Of a DNA stretch of 21,360 nt, positions 5,701-18,603 are shown one piece after another; positions within the stretch are counted from its first letter, which is position 1; each line of letters starts with the position of its first letter. A program made the position numbers and the translations under genes. This DNA is from Candidatus Heimdallarchaeota archaeon (lineage in GTDB: Archaea; Asgardarchaeota; Heimdallarchaeia; JABLTI01): positions 1 through 21,360 of the forward strand of contig JAHLVW010000011.1 in assembly GCA_019058275.1 (NCBI GenBank), read 5' to 3'. A model generated the notes under the pieces. It did no database searches. It saw only the letters and a list, made by a program, of their open reading frames with translations, and had not been told where the DNA came from.

Positions 5701-7080
5701 ATTTTCTGTACTTTGTCCATATTCCGTAGGTTCTCTCCAAAATGCTTTCAAACCTATTGCAAAAGTAATTGCACTGGAAATATCAAAATCTATCGAAATA
5801 TAGATTCGCAAGTCAGCCCATTTAGGCATTTCAGCAGAGCTTCTATTTTCCATAACAATATTGATTTCATTGTTTTCTAGTGATGAAGCTCTTGCGGGAA
5901 TTATATCTCGATTTTCTCTCAATTTTTGATGTAATTTGTAGATTTCATCCTCACCTTCTCTCTCTAATAATTCACTTACATTACTAATATCAGTATCCTC
6001 TTCCAATGACTTTCTCGCTCCTACAGAAATCCCAAATATTCTTGAAAGATGATTTTCATTCTTTGCTTTAATTAAACAGTGATTATCATTGTATATTGGT
6101 TCACTTTTCCATGAAAAGCCAAGGTAATTACAATTTTTACATCTATTATCAACATGATAGTCTAAATCTTCCCAATTTGTAATTATAATATCAGGTAAAT
6201 CTTCAAGGAAAAATTTTTTTATTCTGACTGCAAAAACCTCAAATGGTACAATTTCTAAATCCTCTTCAAAAGCTGCGTATAGTTCCTCATAGTTCGGCTG
6301 TCTACCTTCTTCATCAATAATTCTTATTCTACATTTAATCAAATTAGAAGCTTCATGGGATCCAGACCATATTGAACCTTCAGGTATTACAACAAATTTA
6401 TCATCCAAATTATTATCAATAAGCCAACCAGATAAAGCCATCATATAGTAAGCTACTTCAGCAAGATAACTTTTAGAAGGATTTGCAGTTACTTTTATAT
6501 CAATTACTCTTAATTGCAATCTATCATCATTTTCTTGTAATCTTTTAACCTCACCATTTGGTGTAATGTACCTTTTGTAAGTACCTGCTGAAATTATATG
6601 TATGATATCTGGTCTAATTTCACTAAAATCTAAATTGAATAATTCTTTATAAGAAGATATTCCTAAGTCATCAAGAAATTTCTGTGATACGTCAAATTGT
6701 TGCTCTACTAAAAAAAGATCAGCACTTGCATTAGTTAATCCTATTTCTAATTCCATTTTATTATATTTGATTTCATTTTCTTCGATAGTTGCTGGATTTC
6801 CAATAATCTGTTCAGATCCAAATATTTCTCTCAAATCTGCTAATTTAGCTATCTCCCATCTTTTACCCTCTTTTCGAAATTGATCTAATCCTGGTCTTGG
6901 ATCTTGTTCAGGAGGTATTCCTTGTGTTTCTCTTTCATGTCTATATTTTTTATTATTTGGTGACAGATTGAATTTTAGTTGTCTTTTGCATTCAGTTCTT
7001 AAGTATTTTGATAAACATTCTTTCCTAAATAATGGCATAAAACTACTTCCATTTCCTTTTCTAATGATAATAATATTCAT
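2749..7080 (-). CDS. Cas4/RecB-like PD-(D/E)xK nuclease fused to Dna2/Upf1-type superfamily 1 helicase (TM0106/Dna2-like architecture)
   Basis: N-terminal IRPDII...VIDIK...EVAYY nuclease motifs with Cys residues (ECKRQ...CKNC...HC) in the Fe-S staple layout. A central RNase H-like segment (IYISIDFD) follows. SF1 motifs are complete: Q-motif LNNTQ, GPPGTGKS, IIIDEATQ, GDLKQLPP, NYRS, VTPHRAQ, TVDRFQGQERD, RFNVTISRAK. An alternative start is the ATG at 7038 (MPLFRK), preceded by AAGGAAATGGAAG. Confidence 0.88.
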   Translation of the reverse strand: MNIIIIRKGNGSSFMPLFRKECLSKYLRTECKRQLKFNLSPNNKKYRHERETQGIPPEQDPRPGLDQFRKEGKRWEIAKLADLREIFGSEQIIGNPATIEENEIKYNKMELEIGLTNASADLFLVEQQFDVSQKFLDDLGISSYKELFNLDFSEIRPDIIHIISAGTYKRYITPNGEVKRLQENDDRLQLRVIDIKVTANPSKSYLAEVAYYMMALSGWLIDNNLDDKFVVIPEGSIWSGSHEASNLIKCRIRIIDEEGRQPNYEELYAAFEEDLEIVPFEVFAVRIKKFFLEDLPDIIITNWEDLDYHVDNRCKNCNYLGFSWKSEPIYNDNHCLIKAKNENHLSRIFGISVGARKSLEEDTDISNVSELLEREGEDEIYKLHQKLRENRDIIPARASSLENNEINIVMENRSSAEMPKWADLRIYISIDFDISSAITFAIGLKAFWREPTEYGQSTENFHSWPQRGAHVFRIDQRDTNIERREFINFLDTLDNILSEARRFNQDTTYQIYIWDKTQYNHLTRIISRHLDALMNQDGLNNLLWLFPPEEILQNWETVTRRSPLTILSDVINSHLAVPIPHYYNIFDTARNYHRHDLSENIARFRVHPLFEDPLSNQIPSERAHEIWTRTIQPYWANQLDIVRETVTKKISALETIVSRLETDIRQTLYQKAPTIAIRPPRTIPRMSPEGNLWFLHQKLNYAFNELEVHRIRAMPPHMREAKFRSARLVNRIVGREANIILEELQIEENENIRIYRMRETSKEVKLREGDFNFALAPENNQSFLNSKLIRFIHGNQTLMSLFDNRLLNSRMEDLTGVTIKAIDRENLIIVVEHNNRGISLDEIENYNLANLNINVLLDPKFLDFFTGKLKDCLRAIGRPYRDSDERLLQITGQINTRGARISQISPPVDFIWNVQETATTLLSRDLSMIKDQIVNSSFNLNNTQWEAWEDAMSKRIQLIWGPPGTGKSRTLQGIAIGSVILAHNQNENKRILICSANYKAIDNVFKYVNVFIKSNLPETDCQIYRLRSIHSQPPMESDVDLAYDGSSQSSKKRLRNLFNELVNNNSIHVIASTPSQIYNLMKVGNERYLNELFDIIIIDEATQMDVSSAILSLCSVSNGGSLVLAGDLKQLPPIHKVKPPLDFENFVGSIYSYYKDYHNLEEKMLDINYRSNRIIVDFSFNAGYLERLESFSPNLMLNINELPYEKPINWNDELYWTDKWNLLLDPTKPVACFVYPDGRSGQWNQFEANSITALIRHLYGYLKKDLLNQINPLTNDEIIPSNEIYSFKEFWEKGIGVVTPHRAQQGLIINLLQRAFEGEEDYEPSLIRDAVDTVDRFQGQERDIIIASYCLGDPDIIRDEDEFIMSLNRFNVTISRAKAKVIVFVSDEIIDYLSDDYDILENSKLIKDYAEIFCNEWEKLSLYYINENQKIEVKGEYRYRAFN

Positions 7081-7146
7081 TAATATTAGAAATCTTTCCT
7101 TTTAATAGATAAAAATCTTTAGAAATGTAAATTGGAATGTAGATTA

Positions 7147-8943: not shown

Positions 8944-11136
8944 TTATAGAAACCAAGGTTTTTCTACCCATTTTTCTAATGGAGCTGATTCTAGATTAGA
9001 TAATACCAAGCATTTCTCTGCATATTTTAATGTACATGGAAATTTCGATTTTGATTTTGTATAACCCAAATGCATTCGAGATAAAAGAAATGTTGTTTCT
9101 ATATCTTCATGCTCTAGATTAGCATTTACTTTCGTTATCTTTATTGGTTCTGGCATCCTATCCTCAATCATTTCTGATGTAGTAACAAGAATAGCTTTTT
9201 TTCCTGACTCTAGAAATAAATATGTTCCATCATCGGGTTTCTTATTTTCTTTTTGAGAATATATTCTTTCATAATAACTTCGTGTTATAACAAAAACATC
9301 ATTAAACGAATTACAAAACTCATGTTCGAAAGGATACAAAATACCTCTTTTGTGCAGAATGATTTTTTCATTTCTTATTATTGGTCTAATATTACTATTA
9401 TAATTAATTTTCAATTTAGTAATATAATCACTTTTATCTTCAGGATTAAATTTGCCAGTAAAACTACCTCTAAATGATCCTTTAGGTGAAATTAAAATCA
9501 TACTGTAAGTTCCATTCCAGAAATTAGATTGTAATCCTAAAAACCAAGAGTTTAAATCTTTATTTAAAACCCATGCAATTCCTCCAGCTTTTGAATAAAT
9601 ACCAAGTGAAGTTTCATTAATATGATTGCTAAAAGGTATATCTTGATTAACATTTAATCCCTGAACATTGATATTGAGCTTATGGCATTCTCTCTTAATC
9701 TCTCTTAACCACTTATAGTCATCTTCATCATCCATTATTGCTAAAACTATATTCGTTTCTAGTTCTCTTATATCTTTTAGTTTATCAAAGTAATAATAAT
9801 CAGTTTTGACATTAAAATTTTGAATCAATCGATTCTTAATGGAATTAACATATCTTGCTGGATTTTTCGATAAATGTCTTCTACTTTTAATAATTCCTAG
9901 ATTTATATTTGATAACTGGTTATCAAAATCTGAAATTGTGAATCTATTTTTTAAAATGAATTTAAACGGATCTAGCACCTCACTTAGTTTATTATCTATT
10001 TTTATTGTATATTTTGGTTGTTTAATTTTAATTAGTGGTTTTTTAAGAAAAGTCTTTTCAGTGAAAAATCTCATTCCACTGGGCGAAGCAACTAGATTTT
10101 TAAGATTTTCAATACTGTCTTTGTATCTTTTTTTAGGAGTGGCATGCAATATATTTGTAATCTTCTTTCGATCTTCATATTCCCTTATTATTTTCCTATC
10201 TATTTTTATTTGACGTCTAAGTCTTTCGGGTACAAATGTGTAAGTTCCACCTCCTCTTTTGGTTTCAATTAAAGGGGTTTCATTCTTTATTTTTGGTTCT
10301 TGATCTTCTGCTTTTAATTTATTAAAAAAAAGACAATCCTTAAAACTATAATCATAATAATTATGGATTATTCCTTTTCGATCAGTAAAAGTTGCATCTT
10401 TAGGTTTTTCCATTATGAATTTTTCAAACTTATAACCACTTCTTTTGAAATTAATTGGAGACAAAGTACATTCTCCATTTTTTAGAAATAGACATTCATA
10501 TTTGGAACATGTTTGAAATAAATATTCATTCTTGAGATTTCTTTCAAGTGTTTCTAAATCTTCTAACCCGTATTCATTAATTTCATCTCGTAATGTAAAT
10601 TTAGAAAAAAACTTATGACGTGTATCTACAAAAACATAAGGTTCACCATCTCTTCCTTGGTAAACCTTAAACGTAAATCCTGGATAAAGTACTATTTTTT
10701 GAAAAATAATTGGTTTGTGTTGATATACTTCAATATCTACAACTTTTTCTAATTCTTGAGTACTAATAGCGGTTGGACTTCTTCTGCTTGGAATAATATA
10801 GAAATTGGAATTCCTAAGTGAATATTTTAAGCAATTAGTTATAAAATTGATTTTGTTTTCCTCATAATCATAAGGATCCTTTTCTTTTCTCAAGCTATTG
10901 CCTAGAATCTTCCTTATTTCGTCTTCTAAATTTTCAAAGTAATATAGAGTATGTATATGTGTTTGATTATTAATTATAATATCAATTTTGAATCTATCTG
11001 AAATTGTCTTTATTAAGTTTAATCCTTCAGAATAGTCCTTCTGACTAAAATCAAGGAAAAACTTTTTTATTGTTAATCTTTCTACACTAGCAAAATTTAT
11101 TCTGGATGAATTTAAGAATACCATTTCTTGACTCAT
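8944..11136 (-). CDS. ago: Long prokaryotic Argonaute (PIWI-domain protein), predicted catalytically inactive
   Basis: L1-like YPGFTFKV...VFVDTRHKF; PAZ-like NYYDY...PLI...YTFVPERL; MID EIKR...INVQGL...LGIYSKAGGIAWVL; PIWI RIY...PDDGTY, PEPIKI, LLSRMH, FPCTLKYAEK; C-terminal PWFL. Catalytic Asp positions are replaced (GLQ536S instead of GxD; HKR597G instead of HRDG). SD GGGGAG upstream; ATGA overlap with the preceding gene. Confidence 0.85.
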   Translation of the reverse strand: MSQEMVFLNSSRINFASVERLTIKKFFLDFSQKDYSEGLNLIKTISDRFKIDIIINNQTHIHTLYYFENLEDEIRKILGNSLRKEKDPYDYEENKINFITNCLKYSLRNSNFYIIPSRRSPTAISTQELEKVVDIEVYQHKPIIFQKIVLYPGFTFKVYQGRDGEPYVFVDTRHKFFSKFTLRDEINEYGLEDLETLERNLKNEYLFQTCSKYECLFLKNGECTLSPINFKRSGYKFEKFIMEKPKDATFTDRKGIIHNYYDYSFKDCLFFNKLKAEDQEPKIKNETPLIETKRGGGTYTFVPERLRRQIKIDRKIIREYEDRKKITNILHATPKKRYKDSIENLKNLVASPSGMRFFTEKTFLKKPLIKIKQPKYTIKIDNKLSEVLDPFKFILKNRFTISDFDNQLSNINLGIIKSRRHLSKNPARYVNSIKNRLIQNFNVKTDYYYFDKLKDIRELETNIVLAIMDDEDDYKWLREIKRECHKLNINVQGLNVNQDIPFSNHINETSLGIYSKAGGIAWVLNKDLNSWFLGLQSNFWNGTYSMILISPKGSFRGSFTGKFNPEDKSDYITKLKINYNSNIRPIIRNEKIILHKRGILYPFEHEFCNSFNDVFVITRSYYERIYSQKENKKPDDGTYLFLESGKKAILVTTSEMIEDRMPEPIKITKVNANLEHEDIETTFLLSRMHLGYTKSKSKFPCTLKYAEKCLVLSNLESAPLEKWVEKPWFL

Positions 11137-12071
11137 TCAAATTTCTCCCCTTTAATTTCAATGTAATTAACTGGTTTTTCATTATAGTATTCTTCTATAA
11201 TTTTATCTAGTTTTCCTATCATATCATTATCAATTAACCAGTTTTCAATATCAAACAATGAATTCAAAACATCATTATTAGAATTAACTATCAATAGAGA
11301 TTCTCTGATGTCAAAAATAACATTCAGGAAAATCAGCCCAAAAAGCTGCTTTGTTTTTTTCAATTTTCTTATTTGCTCTAATTTTCTATTCAATTCATCA
11401 AAATTTAGTTCTTTAACGAATTTTAAAGATATTATAATCTCTATTATAAGTACATCTGACTTTAATTCTATAATTAATTGTGTTTTGAATAAGTCTTCGA
11501 TATTTAAACTAACATAGTTTTTTATCATTCTTATACAACTAATCTCATCTTCATGCTTTGAGAGAATTGGACTTCTTTTGTAATTCTTCCTTATTAATAA
11601 TTTAATTAATTTTTTTTGTAAATTCACCAATTCTTTTGTTTTATTTTCAAATCTAATTTCTTTAGAGAAGAATAATCCTGGTTCTTTTAAATTTGAACTT
11701 TCATAATAGAAATCAGTAATATATTCTAAAAATAATTCTCCAACTGAAGTAATAATATATTTCTTGATTTTTTTAGAACTATCTTTTTCAGATATTACAA
11801 TCAGTTCTTGGTTCAGTAATTCTCTCAAGTGATAATTCAGCATATTAGCATTAATGCTTTTTAGTTTTGATGTAAAATCCGTTTTATTAATATGATCTAA
11901 TTGAACTTTTCTTTCTATTATCTTAGCCAAATCTTTCGGAGATAAACCTTCATTTTTGCTATTCTTCAAGCTTTTTAAAATTTCAAATCTCCATATAGTG
12001 GATTCGCCACCCAAACTTGAGAATAGTTTTGATATTCTTTGATACATTTTACTACTCAATTCTATTTTCAC
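11133..12071 (-). CDS. Winged helix-turn-helix (ArsR-like) DNA-binding protein with uncharacterised C-terminal domain
   Basis: LFSSLGG...WRFEILKSL...GLSPKDLAK...NMLNYHLRELLNQELI...KKYIITSVGE is an ArsR-type wHTH pattern with an insertion between the helices. The annotated GTG is part of a GGTGA SD-like motif, so the true start may be TTG 12059 or ATG 12047. Confidence 0.75.
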   Translation of the reverse strand: MKIELSSKMYQRISKLFSSLGGESTIWRFEILKSLKNSKNEGLSPKDLAKIIERKVQLDHINKTDFTSKLKSINANMLNYHLRELLNQELIVISEKDSSKKIKKYIITSVGELFLEYITDFYYESSNLKEPGLFFSKEIRFENKTKELVNLQKKLIKLLIRKNYKRSPILSKHEDEISCIRMIKNYVSLNIEDLFKTQLIIELKSDVLIIEIIISLKFVKELNFDELNRKLEQIRKLKKTKQLFGLIFLNVIFDIRESLLIVNSNNDVLNSLFDIENWLIDNDMIGKLDKIIEEYYNEKPVNYIEIKGEKFE

Positions 12072-12202
12072 CTTAAAACTTTATACACAAAATATTTTAT
12101 TGAAAAACTAGAAAATAAATCTTTCGTGAAAATTTTTTCACATAATGCATTTTAATAAAAAGTGATATTGTTATCATAAATAAAGGAGTTGATTGAGTAA
12201 AA
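12072..12202. promoter_or_regulatory. Divergent promoter region with two candidate palindromic operators
   Basis: Perfect inverted repeat GTGAAAA-tt-TTTTCAC at 12126-12141 and TGATA-N4-TATCA at 12163-12176. BRE/TATA-like GAAAGA-TTTATTTT on the minus strand (12125-12112), TTTAATA on the plus strand (12151-12157) and SD AAGGAG at 12183-12188. Confidence 0.6.
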
Positions 12203-14482
12203 ATGTATTCAAATCTCTTCATATCAAAAAGTGAACCATTGAAAGAGCTTGTTGTCGACTACTATCATTTAGTAGGTGAGATTTCTCCAAATGATTTTTA
12301 CCGAATTATAAAAGGAGCAGAGAAGCATCTCTATAATCTTGGATTTTGTGTTTCAACTTTTAAAGATAAATTAGTCTTTTTAGATGAAATGACAAAACGA
12401 CCACCACCAGAATTTAGTATTGGTAGCTATAAATTCAAGTTAGCTAAAGATAAAATGAAACTCACTTCTGACAAACATGCATACCTTTTTTCAAATCTAG
12501 TTTTTTGTTCGCTAAAATTTAGAGCATATAAGAACGGTTATATTGGACCAGAAAGTCAGAAATTCTTTAGAAAACGACCTTTCAAGGTAGATTACTTAGC
12601 ATATCATGATGCTTTTGAATATGATGTAGTGGTTTTTAATGATGGTAGAGTTGGAATTTGGCTTGATCCGACAACTAGATGGAAACAAAGTGTCCAGAAT
12701 TTCCTTACTTGGTCTAAAAAACAGGAATTATCCCAGGATGAAATAAAGGAAGCGCTAATAGGTAAGATTGTAAAATGCCCAAGTCCTGGAAAGAAAGATT
12801 ATAGAGCCAAAATAGTTGATGTTTGTTATAAATCTATAAGTGAGTACAATATAAAAGCTAATGGCATAGAAACAACTGTATATGATTATTGGATATCAGT
12901 TAGCCCTAAACATAAGAATTGGTTAGATAAGAAATCAATACAATTGGATCCTAATGAAAAACCAGTTATAACAGTACAAATGATAGGTTTAGATTTTAGA
13001 CCTTCATTCCCTTCATCATTACTTAATCTCGTAATAGACATAAATGATCCACTTATTCCAAGAACTGCTTTATCTCAAAAGAAAATCTTGAAACCAAGAA
13101 TCCGTATTAATGAAACAAAAAAATTATTTGATTTAATTATCAAAGATGGTTTATTACTAGGAAAGTATAAACTTGATTTTAATCATGAGCTAATTGACTG
13201 GACAAAAAAGGGCAAAGAATATGCTAGAGTAAAACCGTTACCTTCACCTGATATTCAATTTGGAAACGAACAGATTATTAAATCTGATAGCCCATTTCAA
13301 GAGATTGATAGAAAAATTGCTTCTGCATTAAGAGAATATGGACCAGTTTCTCAAATCGAGAAATTATGTATAAATTACATTGTACCTAGTGATATTCAAG
13401 ATAAAATTGAGTCTTTTCATGAGACACTTAACAATGTTAGTAAGGAGTTTAAGCTTGCAGATTTAACACTTGGTGAAGTTAAAGCTATTGATAGACTTCA
13501 TCCTGATAGATATTTGCGAGAATCTAAACAACTAATGAACTCAAATGATCTTACTGTTGTTATACTTCCAGAAACTCAAACGACAAAAGCTTACATTTCA
13601 GCTAAGAGAGGTTTAGGTGAAAAACTAATTAGCAGTCAAATGCTGGAGTTTTCTACATTCAGCAAAATTGTAAGCAATCCTCAAAGTATGAGTTATACTT
13701 TATCAAATATAGTGGCTCAGATATACGATAAATCATTAGATCCTGGTGAATCAATTTGGCATCTTGCTAAACCAGCAGGTAGATTGGATCCAAAGAAAGT
13801 TATCTATTTTATGGGGTTTGATGTTTCAAGAGCTCCAGAAAAACGAAAAGAAGCTGCTGCTTATGCAGCAGTATGTGATCCATATGGTAGAATGCTATAC
13901 AGAAAAGCAATTGATACACACAAAGGTGAAAAAATACAAGCTAAAGTGTTAAGTGATTGGTTTTTTGATGTTGCTAGTTCAACATTTGATGAATCAAAAG
14001 AAACAAAGAAAATTGACTGTTTAATATTGTTCAAAGATGGCCCAATACAAAGTAATCAAGTTATTGATTATAAAAATGGTGCATTAGATGCAAAGAATAG
14101 ACTTGTAAAAGAAGGAATTATGGAAGAAAATTGTGATATAAAAGTTGTTTCTGTTATTAAGAAAGGTCCACATAGAATTTATGGTAAGGAAAGATTTGAC
14201 TATAGTACACAAAACACCTCAGTAATTTGGAATGAAAAAAAAGCCTTAATTGTAACAGCTAAAGCACATCAAGGTACATCTGCAGCAATTAGGATTAATT
14301 TAGATTTTCAAATAAATGAAGATATGATAATCGACCAAGTTATACAAATCTTCAATGATCTTAGATATCTTGATTGGAGTTCGCTTTATAAACAACCAAA
14401 GACCATTCTTCCATTGCACATAGTACAGAACTTAGCGAAGCTAAGTGCACATGATATTAATGTGCCATATATACCTAGGTAG
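12203..14482 (+). CDS. ago: Long prokaryotic Argonaute (N-L1-PAZ-L2-MID-PIWI) with near-intact catalytic tetrad
   Basis: L1 AFEYDV...IWLDPTTR; full PAZ (TVYDYW...IQL..NEKPVITV...FPSSLL); MID 5'-phosphate pocket Y464-K468-Q479-K510; PIWI GFD540VS, GE576K, FKD612G, KKGPHRI, LPLHIVQ742NLAK. Confidence 0.92.
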   Translation: MYSNLFISKSEPLKELVVDYYHLVGEISPNDFYRIIKGAEKHLYNLGFCVSTFKDKLVFLDEMTKRPPPEFSIGSYKFKLAKDKMKLTSDKHAYLFSNLVFCSLKFRAYKNGYIGPESQKFFRKRPFKVDYLAYHDAFEYDVVVFNDGRVGIWLDPTTRWKQSVQNFLTWSKKQELSQDEIKEALIGKIVKCPSPGKKDYRAKIVDVCYKSISEYNIKANGIETTVYDYWISVSPKHKNWLDKKSIQLDPNEKPVITVQMIGLDFRPSFPSSLLNLVIDINDPLIPRTALSQKKILKPRIRINETKKLFDLIIKDGLLLGKYKLDFNHELIDWTKKGKEYARVKPLPSPDIQFGNEQIIKSDSPFQEIDRKIASALREYGPVSQIEKLCINYIVPSDIQDKIESFHETLNNVSKEFKLADLTLGEVKAIDRLHPDRYLRESKQLMNSNDLTVVILPETQTTKAYISAKRGLGEKLISSQMLEFSTFSKIVSNPQSMSYTLSNIVAQIYDKSLDPGESIWHLAKPAGRLDPKKVIYFMGFDVSRAPEKRKEAAAYAAVCDPYGRMLYRKAIDTHKGEKIQAKVLSDWFFDVASSTFDESKETKKIDCLILFKDGPIQSNQVIDYKNGALDAKNRLVKEGIMEENCDIKVVSVIKKGPHRIYGKERFDYSTQNTSVIWNEKKALIVTAKAHQGTSAAIRINLDFQINEDMIIDQVIQIFNDLRYLDWSSLYKQPKTILPLHIVQNLAKLSAHDINVPYIPR

Positions 14483-14494
14483 GAGGAAAAGGAA

Positions 14495-15325
14495 ATGACT
14501 GAAATTGGACTATATATAATGATTTCAATAATTGGTGCTATTGTTATTGGATGGATAATCTATCAATTGGTTCAGCAAAGAAGAACAGAACCAGATGTTA
14601 ACTTTAGTCAACAACTTATGAATACCACCAATTTGATGCGGGATGAAATAAGGAAATTTCTAGATTATCTTCAAATGAAACCTGCTTCTCAAGGGAAGTT
14701 TGGTGAGAATATAGCTGATATCTTGTTATCAAATCTAACAGGAGATTTAATTGAAAAACAATATCAGACTGCAGATATTTCTGGAATAATAGACTTTGTT
14801 GTTAGACTTCCTGATAGTGATTTATTACTACCAATAGATAGTAAGTTTATTTTACCAAAAGAATTCGAAAACTTAGAAACAATAGAACTTGATAAAGATA
14901 CTATAAAGCAATTGAATAAAAAGACACAAGACAGAGCAAAAGAAATTAAAAAATATATTGAATCTAATGAAACTACAGACTTCGTATTGATGTTCATTCC
15001 TGATTTTGTTTTTGCTGTCTTAAATCGTCAGACACTCATTAAATTGTCTGAAATGAAGGTTGTTCCAGCTAATTCTAGTGGTTTACTAAGCACAATTTTC
15101 ATGATTAATATGCAACACCGGTTTACACAGTTGAATAGCTCTGCCTGTAAGTTTACTGATGTGCAGATGAAAGCATGTTTCAATATCACAGAAGCTATGA
15201 ATAAAATGCGAAAGGGTCAAAAACAATTCAGAGCAGGTGTGAAGAATTTTACTGATGCTTATAATATTCTTGACTATGTTAATGTTATGATTAATACACT
15301 AGAAGTTGAGGAGGAGGAAAAATAA
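14495..15325 (+). CDS. rmuC: RmuC-family PD-(D/E)xK nuclease-fold protein with N-terminal transmembrane helix
   Basis: Hydrophobic N-terminus IGLYIMISIIGAIVIGWIIY; RmuC motifs QGKFGE, IDFVVRLP...LPIDSKF and TTDFVLMFIP. SD AGGAGG at 14481-14486; starts 12 nt after the Argonaute stop. Confidence 0.82.
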   Translation: MTEIGLYIMISIIGAIVIGWIIYQLVQQRRTEPDVNFSQQLMNTTNLMRDEIRKFLDYLQMKPASQGKFGENIADILLSNLTGDLIEKQYQTADISGIIDFVVRLPDSDLLLPIDSKFILPKEFENLETIELDKDTIKQLNKKTQDRAKEIKKYIESNETTDFVLMFIPDFVFAVLNRQTLIKLSEMKVVPANSSGLLSTIFMINMQHRFTQLNSSACKFTDVQMKACFNITEAMNKMRKGQKQFRAGVKNFTDAYNILDYVNVMINTLEVEEEEK

Positions 15326-15870
15326 TGGGAATAATTTACTTAGATATTGAAACAACTGGATTGAACTATAATAATGATCAAATAGTAACGATACAATTGC
15401 AAGAAGATAATCAATCGTTGATAATTTTCAAATCATGGGAAAGTAATGAAAAAACTATTTTAAGGAAATTCTTAATGCGTCTTTCTGGGATACAACGCAA
15501 AGGTTTCACAATTTGTGTTGGTTTTAATATTTTAAAATTTGATATTCCTTTCTTGATATCAAGATGTAATTACCATAAGCTATTAACACCAAATGATTTG
15601 ATTGAAATCTTTTATCGGAATCTTGCCCATTGTGATTTACTACAGATTTTATTACCACATCATGATTGGAAGTATAAGGGTTTAACTTGGGATTATGTTT
15701 TACGATTATATGGTTATCAATCAAAGAAAGGTCATGGAAATCAAATTCCAATATGGTTTAAAGAAGGTAAATATGATAAAATAATTGAATATATAGAAAG
15801 TGAATTTCCACCAATGGTGGATATTTATTGGAAATTAAGAAAGAGTGATTTTCGAATAGTAACAACTTAA
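15325..15870 (+). CDS. DEDD-superfamily 3'-5' exonuclease (RNase H-like / PolB proofreading-like)
   Basis: ExoI IYLDIETTG, ExoII GFNILKFDIPFL, ExoIII-like YIESE. TAATG stop/start overlap with rmuC; SD GGAGGAGG. Confidence 0.85.
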   Translation: MGIIYLDIETTGLNYNNDQIVTIQLQEDNQSLIIFKSWESNEKTILRKFLMRLSGIQRKGFTICVGFNILKFDIPFLISRCNYHKLLTPNDLIEIFYRNLAHCDLLQILLPHHDWKYKGLTWDYVLRLYGYQSKKGHGNQIPIWFKEGKYDKIIEYIESEFPPMVDIYWKLRKSDFRIVTT

Positions 15871-15883
15871 AGGAGGTGAATTA

Positions 15884-16111
15884 TTGACAAAAAAAACTTA
15901 CAAGGATAGGAAAGGTTATATTCGCTTTAAGGATTCAGGAAAACGAGTTCATAGATGGGTTGTTGAAAAGCGCATTGGCAGAAAATTGAAATCTCATGAG
16001 GAAGTACATCATCGTAATCGAAATCGTTCTGATAATCGCTCAAGTAATCTATGGGGTTTTCTAGGAAAAACAGGTCGTAAAAAGCATCGCGAATTACATC
16101 GGAAAAGGTAA
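15884..16111 (+). CDS. Small basic HNH endonuclease-motif protein (HNH_3-like)
   Basis: VHRWVVEKRIGRKL...EVHHRNRNRSDNRSSNL...H...H is the HNH beta-beta-alpha pattern. The TTG start is preceded by a strong SD, GGAGGTGA, at 15872-15879. Confidence 0.8.
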   Translation: MTKKTYKDRKGYIRFKDSGKRVHRWVVEKRIGRKLKSHEEVHHRNRNRSDNRSSNLWGFLGKTGRKKHRELHRKR

Positions 16112-16165
16112 ATTATTTTTGTATTTAACTTATCTTCTATCATATATTTTTCATGTCATTTTAAT
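16112..16165 (+). terminator. Possible archaeal-type T-rich terminator after the rightward Argonaute operon
   Basis: Several oligo-T tracts (TTTTT, TTTTT, TTTT) directly follow the HNH stop. This is weak evidence in AT-rich DNA. Confidence 0.25.
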
Positions 16166-16216
16166 ACTGAAGAATAGTTATAGAAAAAATATTTGAATTA
16201 CTAATACTACTTTAAT

Positions 16217-18058
16217 TTGAAAATAGGAACAGGAATTCAAATTATGAATAGCTCTAATGTGGATTTTCTTTGTATAGATAAAACAATTCATATTATTAAT
16301 TTTAGAATTAGATTATATCCTTCTAAACTATGCGATCTTAAAGGGTCACAGGAAATTGAAAACATTTTACCATCTATTAATTTCAAGTATGATATAAAAA
16401 ATGAGAATATTAAATCCTCAAATATAAAGTCTAAGATTTTTGTTCAAAATGATAAATTAGTCTTTGATAAAAAGGAATTAAAGTTTATAAAATTCGGTCA
16501 AATAGAGTTTTGTTGGGAAAGCACTTTTGATGATCAGATTGTAATTATAATGGATATTGAAGTTGTTGATACAATTGAAAATGCTATATCATTTACTAAT
16601 GTAAAAGACTACTTGCTGAAATCTATTAGTGGCTTTCAACAATATGAAAATTTTCGTAAAAATGAATCACACATACATCGATTTCTAAATAAAAACATAC
16701 AAGGAATAAATGCTGACTTAAAGAAAGTCACAGATCCTGTTTCTTTAAACTTCAGAAAAATGGATGAGAATAAGATTAGATTTGTTCAAAAGAGTTCAAA
16801 AATTATTTATGAGGAAGTTATTTCTAATTTTGAACATTATGATAATATATCATTAGAAGTAAAATTCAGAGACCAGTATATTCATTTATATCCAACAGAT
16901 GAATATAATATTTGGACATATGAAAATGGCAAAGGTATAAATCTTCCAAAAAATGGGTTTTTTGAAATTTATCTAATAACTCCTTCTAAATTCAAATATA
17001 ATAAGTCAAATAGAGAGAAAGAATTGCGTACCATGAAATCTGAGTTATACAATATAAGAAATGATTCTAATTCTATAGTTCATGTTAAATTGAGTAACTT
17101 AATCAATGCAGATATGAATAGCACTTATACCTCTCCACTAGATAATTATCAATTATTACTTAATAAAACAAAATATAATGAAATTATAAGAAAATTAGAT
17201 CAAAAGCAACTTAATGCATTGGAAAACATAAATAATAATAAAATATTGGTAATCACTGGTTATGCAGGTTGTGGTAAAACTGAAGTAGGTGTATTAGCAG
17301 CACTACTTAGTAATAAACAAAATTATAGATTACTCGTAACTTCACAAACGAACAAGGCAATAGATAATTTTCTTGAAAGATTGCTAGATTATAAAAAGAA
17401 ATTCCCCAATATAATAGATTTGAAAAATATAGTTAGACTTAGATCAATATATAATAAAATCTATAATAAGAAACTAAGGAAATACAATTTGGAGAATATT
17501 ATTAACAATATTAGAAGTAAAATTAATCGAATCTGTAATAGAGATTTACCTACTTTAGCAGAACAAGAAATGCAACAAGAATTTAAAGATATTTTTACAA
17601 AAGAAATTGTACTATCTGAAATAATTCCTCTTACATTTGATATTGTTTTATCTACATATGGTAAAATTATTTCTAATAGAAGTTTTTTCAGAGATAATCA
17701 GAATTTCTATCTGAATATTACTGATGCTTCAAGTTGTATTTATTTCTCACAATTTATACTAGGCTCGAACAAATCTAACAAATGGCTTATTCTAGGTGAA
17801 GAATTACAGTTACTACCGCAAACAGTTGGTGATTATGTTTTCAAGGAAGACTTAGTTTATCCCGAAGACAAACAGCTTTATGAAGCTATTAGGTATGATC
17901 CCCAAGATTTATCACACAGAAGAAAATTTTCACCTAATTCCAAGAAAGTATACAAGCTTAGCATATTGGAATTCATGCTAAGGATGAAAGATGAGGACTT
18001 GGACACAAACTTATCACATATTCAGTTGAATACACCCAAAATATTCATTCTAAACTAG
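16217..18058 (+). CDS. Degenerate Dna2/Upf1-type SF1 helicase, N-terminal part (first RecA domain); frameshifted
   Basis: LDQKQLNAL (Q-motif), ITGYAGCGKT, SQTNKAIDN. Walker B is degenerate (ITDASS rather than IIDEASQ), as is motif III (GEELQLLP rather than GDxxQLPP). An alternative start is the ATG at 16244 after AGGA. Confidence 0.75.
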   Translation: MKIGTGIQIMNSSNVDFLCIDKTIHIINFRIRLYPSKLCDLKGSQEIENILPSINFKYDIKNENIKSSNIKSKIFVQNDKLVFDKKELKFIKFGQIEFCWESTFDDQIVIIMDIEVVDTIENAISFTNVKDYLLKSISGFQQYENFRKNESHIHRFLNKNIQGINADLKKVTDPVSLNFRKMDENKIRFVQKSSKIIYEEVISNFEHYDNISLEVKFRDQYIHLYPTDEYNIWTYENGKGINLPKNGFFEIYLITPSKFKYNKSNREKELRTMKSELYNIRNDSNSIVHVKLSNLINADMNSTYTSPLDNYQLLLNKTKYNEIIRKLDQKQLNALENINNNKILVITGYAGCGKTEVGVLAALLSNKQNYRLLVTSQTNKAIDNFLERLLDYKKKFPNIIDLKNIVRLRSIYNKIYNKKLRKYNLENIINNIRSKINRICNRDLPTLAEQEMQQEFKDIFTKEIVLSEIIPLTFDIVLSTYGKIISNRSFFRDNQNFYLNITDASSCIYFSQFILGSNKSNKWLILGEELQLLPQTVGDYVFKEDLVYPEDKQLYEAIRYDPQDLSHRRKFSPNSKKVYKLSILEFMLRMKDEDLDTNLSHIQLNTPKIFILN

Positions 18059-18069
18059 TTGCTGCTTTT

Positions 18070-18603
18070 GTGAAGGATAATTCAGATATAAATTATCCAA
18101 ATGATATCGATTTCTTAGATTTCTCACATTTGTCTAGTTTTACTGAGCAAAGTAATCGCATTCAATACCAAAATAACCGTTTAAGTAAAAATGTGATAAT
18201 AAATAATCTTATAGAAAAACTAGGAACCCTTGTAAATGAGATAAATCAAGATTCAAGTACAAGAAGAATAAGTATTGGTGTGGGTTTTGATAATATTGAT
18301 TCTGTAAGATTTGCTATAACACAATTATCAAACATCTTTGAAAAAATTAAAATCAATAAATTCCAAAAAATCATTGAATTTCCTATCGGCAAAATTGATA
18401 TCTTAATTTCATCAATAAAGAATCATCAAGAAAGAGAATATGATATTTTTCTTTTTGGGATTACAATAGCTAATTTGAAATTTAGTGAGGAGCAAATATA
18501 TACTGCTTTAACTAGGGCTGCAAGCTATTTATTCATTTTTGGACCTGACTTCTCAGAAATTAGACCTAAAAGTATGAGAAAAAAAATTGAGAAACTGGTG
18601 TAA
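18070..18603 (+). CDS. SF1 helicase C-terminal part (second RecA domain); probably the frameshifted continuation of 16217-18058
   Basis: ISIGVGF, SSIKNHQEREYD (motif V-like) and YTALTRAASYLFIFG (motif VI). The frame is open from 17995, overlapping the end of the previous ORF, and there is no clear SD before the GTG. Confidence 0.7.
   Translation: MKDNSDINYPNDIDFLDFSHLSSFTEQSNRIQYQNNRLSKNVIINNLIEKLGTLVNEINQDSSTRRISIGVGFDNIDSVRFAITQLSNIFEKIKINKFQKIIEFPIGKIDILISSIKNHQEREYDIFLFGITIANLKFSEEQIYTALTRAASYLFIFGPDFSEIRPKSMRKKIEKLV

Follow-up and report, generated by a model that had tools for sequence, protein, structure and literature searches.

The window analysed here is a stretch of 21,360 nucleotides (nt) from Candidatus Heimdallarchaeota archaeon (GenBank contig JAHLVW010000011.1; here contig C103 of genome G000, 4.1 Mb and 93% complete). 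The nearest named homologues of its proteins are from Candidatus Heimdallarchaeota. Four genes lie close together on its forward strand. They encode an Argonaute (Ago; 12203-14482, 759 amino acids (aa), Pfam Piwi 1.2e-11), an RmuC-family protein (14495-15325, 276 aa, PF02646 2.1e-19, 70.2 bits against a cut-off of 26), an RNase_H_2/DnaQ-like 3'-5' exonuclease (15325-15870, 181 aa, Pfam RNase_H_2 3.8e-10) and a mini HNH protein (15884-16111, 75 aa, TTG start, Pfam HNH_3 1.7e-9). The Pfam domain calls for all four genes were above the cut-off. In gene order the junctions are a gap of 12 nt (14483-14494 of the same strand), where the Ago stop codon is part of the Shine-Dalgarno site of RmuC, a 1-nt TAATG overlap and a gap of 13 nt. 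A preliminary description made from the letters alone had reported the same open reading frames (ORFs), junctions and domains, and the sequence and the Pfam searches bore it out.

That description had also seen a strong Shine-Dalgarno site before every gene. The contiguous bases matching AGGAGGTGA number 6 for RmuC, 6 for the exonuclease, 9 for HNH and 5 for Ago, whose site reaches 8/9 when one mismatch is allowed. Among 2752 long ORFs of the genome, a rough baseline in which the first ATG was taken as start, at least 6 bases were found in 4.3%, at least 5 in 18.6% and 9 in none. Measured against this baseline the sites of RmuC, exonuclease and HNH count as strong and that of Ago merely as moderate. 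The unit likely ends in the T-rich intergenic region 3' of the HNH gene (16112-16243, forward strand, 132 nt), as judged from archaeal oligo-T termination. A sigma-70 promoter scan of the locus gave chance level, the sigma-70 model being unsuited to archaea. No RNA datasets carrying the stretch were listed, which has no bearing on expression.

A second, independent sediment population (L088/L089, Logan contigs at a depth of about 135) carries the four genes in identical order and spacing. Thus, the operon is no assembly artefact, and the junctions, the Shine-Dalgarno sites and this copy support the earlier view that the four genes form one transcription unit. The two populations are 99% identical from 12202 to the window end. 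To the left, the divergent control region (12072-12202) is the breakpoint of a swappable arm, the identity to L088 starting at 12202. The arm of the window encodes a divergent winged helix-turn-helix (wHTH) protein and a catalytically dead long Argonaute (8944-12071, reverse strand); in its place, L088 has an AAA-ATPase gene and a 285-aa gene, with the switch exactly at the Ago start codon. The first 240 nt of Ago hold 34 base changes (window 12203-12500 against L088 2222-2520), and 22/38 amino-acid changes between the two Argonautes fall within the first 100 codons. This pattern suggests recombination that came in with the left arm.

The predicted model of Ago is a full-length long Argonaute with the architecture N-L1-PAZ-L2-MID-PIWI, and its residues 1-750 align to PliAgo, CbAgo, PIWI and AGO structures. 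The top structural match was PliAgo (Z 28.8, rmsd 7.6, 683 aligned), with PIWI, CbAgo and HrAgo1 not far behind. The PAZ domain gave a weak Pfam match (residues 173-230). In the MID pocket Y464/K468/Q479/K510 align with R418/K422/Q433/K457 of TtAgo (reference sequence from plasmid pTT27), in agreement with the 5'-phosphate motif Y/R-K-Q-K. The catalytic tetrad of TtAgo, D478/E512/D546/D660, aligns with D540/E576/D612/Q742, and Q742 stood opposite D660 in two alignment modes. The accepted fourth residues are D, H, K and N; Gln is not among them (PMC11291487, PMC6299218). D-E-D-Q is invariant across the eight closest Ago homologues and was found in 22/29 clade representatives, down to about 24% identity, with the last column alternating with H and D. 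The dead Argonaute of the window has lost the tetrad site (Q536, R597). As judged from conservation, D-E-D-Q is a maintained variant site and probably catalytic. No report of a DEDQ tetrad in an Argonaute was found in a search of mostly open-access papers.

The named members of the Ago clade belong to Heimdallarchaeota, Bathyarchaeota and Micrarchaeota, and the closest annotated plasmid matches are DEDD haloarchaeal Piwi proteins of about 22% identity. A close Ago homologue was found in none of 10 other genomes of the genus, and viral contigs yielded no relatives of Ago or RmuC. Apparently, Ago is a patchy, mobile gene of a clade that spread horizontally across archaea.

RmuC begins with a single hydrophobic helix (residues 4-22, mean hydropathy 2.5) followed by basic residues. 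This is a predicted membrane anchor, lying within a helix of the model (residues 2-30), in line with the one N-terminal transmembrane helix described before. The little coiled coil noted at that time holds for the N-terminal part; it does not hold for the C-terminus, which the model shows as a 75-residue helix (194-268). The residues E71/D100/D115/K117 are invariant across 22 homologues. The fold matches are PD-(D/E)xK nucleases, although weak (best E 2.7e-3), and no sequence match to solved structures was found for the RmuC nuclease core or the exonuclease. The protein is indeed short, but all Heimdallarchaeia RmuCs are (251-288 aa), which rules out shortness as an Argonaute-specific adaptation.

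Profile searches of 400 Asgard genomes gave about 22 RmuC loci in 20 genomes and Piwi in 68 genomes. Both occurred on one contig only in G000 and G010, some of the RmuC matches lying at contig ends. The G010 locus (contig C28, L044) has the order Argonaute, Cas4-like gene, RmuC, HNH, without the exonuclease. Its rightward Argonaute is unrelated to the window Ago, with no significant BLAST alignment (E 0.048), separate tree positions and a DEDE tetrad. Opposite lie a wHTH gene and a 26% homologue of the window's dead Argonaute (L044 742-3796) in the same divergent arrangement, and a weak SMODS nucleotidyltransferase (10227-10853) comes after the operon. A third locus, L001, encodes an Ago 69% identical to that of the window; RmuC follows after a 12-nt gap with the Ago stop inside the Shine-Dalgarno site, and HNH comes directly after RmuC, again without the exonuclease. 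A Pycsar-like cyclase and a gene with multiple transmembrane segments (L001 9925-11319) stand after this operon. The Ago-RmuC-HNH core is thus present in three Heimdallarchaeia lineages whose other flanks differ.

The three Ago-linked RmuCs formed one clade in four careful trees, with supports of 96/86, 90/89, 92/90 and 92/87 (for the last, residues 1-45 had been removed). They have seven rare residues in common, their ribosome-binding regions are similar, and a protein search queried with all three found no further member of the subclade. Elsewhere in G000, and likewise in G010, an ordinary RmuC is found among peptidase, DegV and transporter genes, so the Ago-linked RmuC is an extra paralogue. 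The ordinary RmuC of the genus repeatedly adjoins a subtilase (S8) gene in variable orientation (L039, L040, L041 on G000:C96, L043); this adjacency recalls the peptidase partner of the Shield system but is not operonic. The simplest history suggested by these comparisons would be a single recruitment of an extra RmuC copy and a mini-HNH behind an Argonaute, with the Argonaute later replaced in G010 and the exonuclease inserted in the window lineage.

The neighbourhoods of the Ago core clade were then compared, with the window lineage excluded. Thirteen were informative; in L011 and L019 the sequence stops at the Argonaute, and L025 was left out as a probably chimeric fragment whose next ORF resembles an outer-membrane receptor piece. 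A coupled nuclease gene was found in 11/13. The slot holds RmuC in L001, NurA-like genes in L003, L007, L008 and L136 (with or without HerA-Mre11-Rad50 or an OLD nuclease), a Cas4-like or PD-(D/E)xK nuclease in L012 and L018, NYN and PD-(D/E)xK in L017, Mre11-Rad50 in L138 with AddAB-like genes on the opposite side, an upstream, overlapping DEDD exonuclease in L002, a faintly matching GIY-YIG gene in L141 and UvrD in L140; L014 has nothing clear there. The published baseline for a coupled nuclease is 45% of tetrad-bearing long-A operons (PMC6299218), a comparison that is no formal test, as the loci are kin. Consequently, the slot beside Ago appears, from gene content, to be filled by swappable DNA-end-processing nucleases.

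Sets of such genes stand directly behind DEDQ Argonautes in L003 (12304-18491), L008 (8534-14002) and L138 (9355-13264), either NurA-HerA-Mre11-Rad50 or Mre11-Rad50; no published description of such an arrangement was found. The position upstream of Ago is likewise swappable and holds regulators of the HFX_2341/CARF type, an AAA ATPase or a wHTH protein. A 370-aa AAA-ATPase/wHTH-like gene recurs there (L003 8180-9995, L007, L008, L122, L125, L136), often paired with a gene of 230-290 aa without assigned function; one such protein of 232 aa has an RdgC-like structural neighbour (TM 0.71). In L141 a 412-aa coiled-coil protein without a membrane helix (5852-7090) lies 3 nt behind a 36% identical Argonaute. 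Its motif order E...PD...DxK is similar to that of RmuC, but hhalign gave E 0.024 and a probability of 2%, and its scores stayed below those of the best shuffles. It was not counted as an RmuC, because the profile scores are not significant and no homologues were found.

The exonuclease has the acidic residues D7, E9 and D73, as expected for the DEDD family to which it had been assigned. The ExoIII motif Y156-x3-E160 departs from this family in having Glu in place of the usual Asp, a feature common to close homologues. Its closest relatives (42-45% identical) are stand-alone genes. Argonautes have DnaQ-like exonucleases as neighbours in L002/L015/L016, in L014 (on the opposite strand) and in L053, but these are distant from the window enzyme. 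The HNH protein is very basic (net +20) and its HH-x-N...DN...NL...H motif is intact. The mini-HNH family matched in 64/400 Asgard genomes, and none of the 29 loci read adjoins an Argonaute or RmuC. The exonuclease thus appears to be an accessory, lineage-specific gene, and HNH a member of a widespread stand-alone family.

Farther right, a 613-aa helicase gene and a 177-aa ORF (window 16217-18603) correspond to a single 790-aa gene in L088/L089. In the window strain 13 nt between short direct repeats are missing near 18035, which shifts the frame. The source-like runs X1/X2 lack them as well, which marks the break as genuine at the level of the strain. Genes of defence type in the window neighbourhood are a methyltransferase, a PLD gene and the second Argonaute.

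Several known systems resemble the operon. APACE1 of cyanobacteria (PMC12094033), whose prokaryotic Argonaute is of the long-A type, likewise joins a long Argonaute with a 5'-phosphate pocket to a PD-(D/E)xK nuclease, the Cas4-family ACE1, in a host without RecBCD/AddAB matches, and guide generation or trimming has been proposed; ACE1 trims guides and boosts interference. In contrast, the place of Cas4 is taken in the window by an RmuC-family protein carrying a membrane helix, an HNH and an exonuclease are added, the tetrad is DEDQ, and the system is known from its genes. No Cas4-family nuclease is among the four operon genes; one is present in the relatives L012, L018 and L044. ShdA of the Pseudomonas Shield system (PMC10270631) shares the N-terminal membrane anchor, the RmuC nuclease domain and the defence setting. 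However, ShdA has about 520 aa, and the window RmuC, likewise known from its gene, is archaeal, has 276 aa and follows an Argonaute. In the operon no ShdB-E-like gene was recognised, no peptidase was found by Pfam, and PADLOC gave no Shield match (2023 library; inclusion of Shield models unconfirmed).

In AmAgo-Agap (PMC11162769) an active-type long Argonaute is tightly coupled to a nuclease gene and Agap makes guides, but the partner is a HEPN RNase. In haloarchaeal APAP (PMC11442185) the nuclease AgaP strengthens interference, and this partner is a PLD protein; the PLD gene of the window lies 3.7 kb downstream, and neither L001 nor the part of the G010 locus that was read has one. The Asgard long Argonaute HrAgo1 (PMC11217426) also has a nuclease gene at its flank, with a putative role in making guides. 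It differs in its DEDH tetrad, its RNA-guided RNA slicing and its RNase III and helicase neighbours, and structurally it is no closer to the window Ago (Z 25.4) than other Argonautes. The long-B system EcBPAN (PMC13535254) and SiAgo-Aga1-Aga2 (PMC11788926) also place an Argonaute beside a nuclease or a membrane-linked partner, and their Argonautes lack the tetrad. The window Ago, by comparison, retains D, E, D and a conserved Q and has a full PAZ domain. The SiAgo system reportedly acts through a membrane effector.

The preliminary description had proposed a dedicated four-gene module for guide biogenesis, in which RmuC could cut incoming DNA where it enters and the exonuclease could trim the 3' ends of guides, to be abandoned if close Ago homologues lacked the other genes as neighbours. 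This is largely what was found. Beyond the window, the full set of four was found only in L088/L089, its 99% identical counterpart, RmuC is missing in 12/13 homologue neighbourhoods, and the closest homologue from another species lacks the exonuclease. The exonuclease and HNH each have closer relatives among stand-alone genes. What stands is the link of Argonaute, RmuC and HNH, which recurs, once with an unrelated Ago; the exonuclease does not recur. On present gene content the four-gene set looks like a local assembly and not a fixed machine.

We tentatively favor RmuC as a loosely coupled supplier of fragments or guides in the slot next to Ago, within an anti-invader long Argonaute system with an accessory nuclease cassette. 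The coupling between Ago and its partners is best read as loose and functional and not as an obligate complex; a complex prediction for Ago and RmuC 36-270 scored 0.00 and counts neither way. The habit of the clade to adjoin DNA-end-processing nucleases favors a role in fragment supply. The slot usually holds end-resection or Cas4-like enzymes, whose type of activity provides or trims guides in bacteria (PMC12094033, PMC11162769), no AddA or RecB match was found in the 93% complete G000, and RmuC domains degrade DNA non-specifically while the membrane anchor restrains them (PMC10270631); for these reasons RmuC is our preferred candidate. The functional roles of all operon proteins are inferred, as follows. 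An extra membrane-anchored RmuC copy and a mini-HNH would have been recruited to the Ago slot in one Heimdallarchaeia lineage. The four genes would be co-expressed, given their coupling. By analogy with ShdA, RmuC would cut double-stranded DNA non-specifically near the membrane, held back by its anchor. Products of PD-(D/E)xK nucleases have 5'-phosphates. They could be cut further or trimmed by HNH and, in the window lineage only, by the 3'-5' exonuclease, and then be loaded into the MID pocket observed in Ago. The guided Ago would bind and probably cleave matching invader nucleic acid, with Gln-based slicing presumed from conservation.

Several observations weigh against this proposal. No Argonaute lies near some 20 further RmuC loci of Asgard genomes, and in a quick tree the Ago-linked RmuC clade had a support of only 49%. 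Only three lineages carry the RmuC link, probably of one origin, so shared descent accounts for part of the recurrence. In G010 the Argonaute gave way to an unrelated one while RmuC-HNH stayed, as would be expected of a hotspot and of a generic feeder alike. Ago departs from the canonical DEDX pattern (X = D/H/K/N). The host encodes NurA separately, and this enzyme could supply fragments. The exonuclease occurs at its position only in the window lineage, including L088/L089, with none between RmuC and HNH in L001 and L044. With stand-alone Asgard HNHs the window HNH shares 50-66% identity, but with those of L001/L044 only 36-37%. It may therefore be a replacement at the same site, and a tree test of orthology with the L001/L044 HNHs (p-AU 0.69) fits either history.

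The main rival, which we consider unlikely though by no means negligible, is that RmuC is a stand-alone defence nuclease like ShdA and that RmuC, exonuclease and HNH are stacked behind the Ago promoter in a defence hotspot, sharing regulation and not mechanism. It ranks first among the rivals because RmuC, exonuclease and HNH can each be found alone, as is mostly the case in Asgard genomes, and because of the mosaic build of the locus: two populations that match at 99% on the right differ in the left arm, with the switch exactly at the Ago start codon, a Pycsar-like cyclase follows in L001, and the Argonaute was swapped in G010:C28. ShdA also protects by itself (PMC10270631). Against it, the Ago-linked RmuC is a paralogue of its own, additional to the ordinary copy, and each of its three known members sits in an Argonaute operon. 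Its position was kept across 44-48% protein identity despite the turnover of other neighbours, whereas ordinary Heimdallarchaeia RmuCs sit among peptidase, DegV and transporter genes.

The odd tetrad admits a further reading, which appears doubtful: Ago would slice weakly or not at all, and target recognition would activate RmuC (or HNH) to destroy the invader or kill the cell, as in long-B nuclease systems or with the PLD partner of APAP. It draws on Gln opposite TtAgo D660, on the anchor-less ShdA, which could not be cloned and appears toxic (PMC10270631), and on the active-type APAP Argonaute, which depends on the catalytic centre of its partner against plasmids (PMC11442185). However, D, E, D and Q are kept down to about 24% identity, with H and D as alternatives in the last column, and are lost in the dead Argonaute. 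Co-evolution with the Argonaute would also be expected of an allosteric partner; instead, one RmuC subclade stands behind two Argonautes that are unrelated to each other, and RmuC is missing from most of the Ago clade. Very improbable, finally, is a role in genome maintenance, with Ago and end-processing nucleases acting at the membrane on host DNA that is broken or has failed to segregate. The NurA-HerA-Mre11-Rad50, AddAB-like and UvrD neighbours of relatives would suit it, and E. coli RmuC was first tied to inversion control (PMC10270631). Against it stand the very patchy distribution of Ago within the genus, the neighbouring methyltransferase, PLD, Pycsar-like and second Argonaute genes, all of defence type, and the separate NurA kept by the host. 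Compared with these alternatives, fragment supply by RmuC remains our preferred reading.

Active-type long Argonautes with an accessory nuclease are known from APACE1, Agap and APAP. New is the three-gene core of Ago, RmuC and HNH in three lineages, probably of one origin. In accordance with the preliminary description, which knew of no characterised Ago-RmuC-exonuclease system, no published Ago-RmuC pairing was found in a search of mostly open-access papers; RmuC, NurA and DEDQ were not found in the supplements of PMC6299218. Neither the D-E-D-Q tetrad nor an effector role for RmuC had been considered in that description. The wider, undescribed DEDQ Argonaute clade may be more interesting than the RmuC core. 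In organisms without RecBCD/AddAB the source of Argonaute guides is open (PMC12094033), and this clade is a natural swap experiment, with NurA-HerA-Mre11-Rad50, Cas4-like enzymes, an exonuclease or RmuC beside one Argonaute family, that can be tested gene by gene. If Gln can be the fourth catalytic residue, many archaeal Argonautes scored inactive by the DEDX rule are not. If RmuC does supply fragments, the poorly understood RmuC family would gain a function, and Shield-like membrane nucleases would be linked to Argonaute immunity. A bolder and rather improbable extension is that the DEDQ clade slices and recruits interchangeable DNA-end-processing machines as guide suppliers, and that Heimdallarchaeia captured a membrane-tethered RmuC paralogue, which would place guide production at the membrane, the entry site of foreign DNA. 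If true, close prokaryotic relatives of eukaryotes would make their guides at a defined place in the cell.

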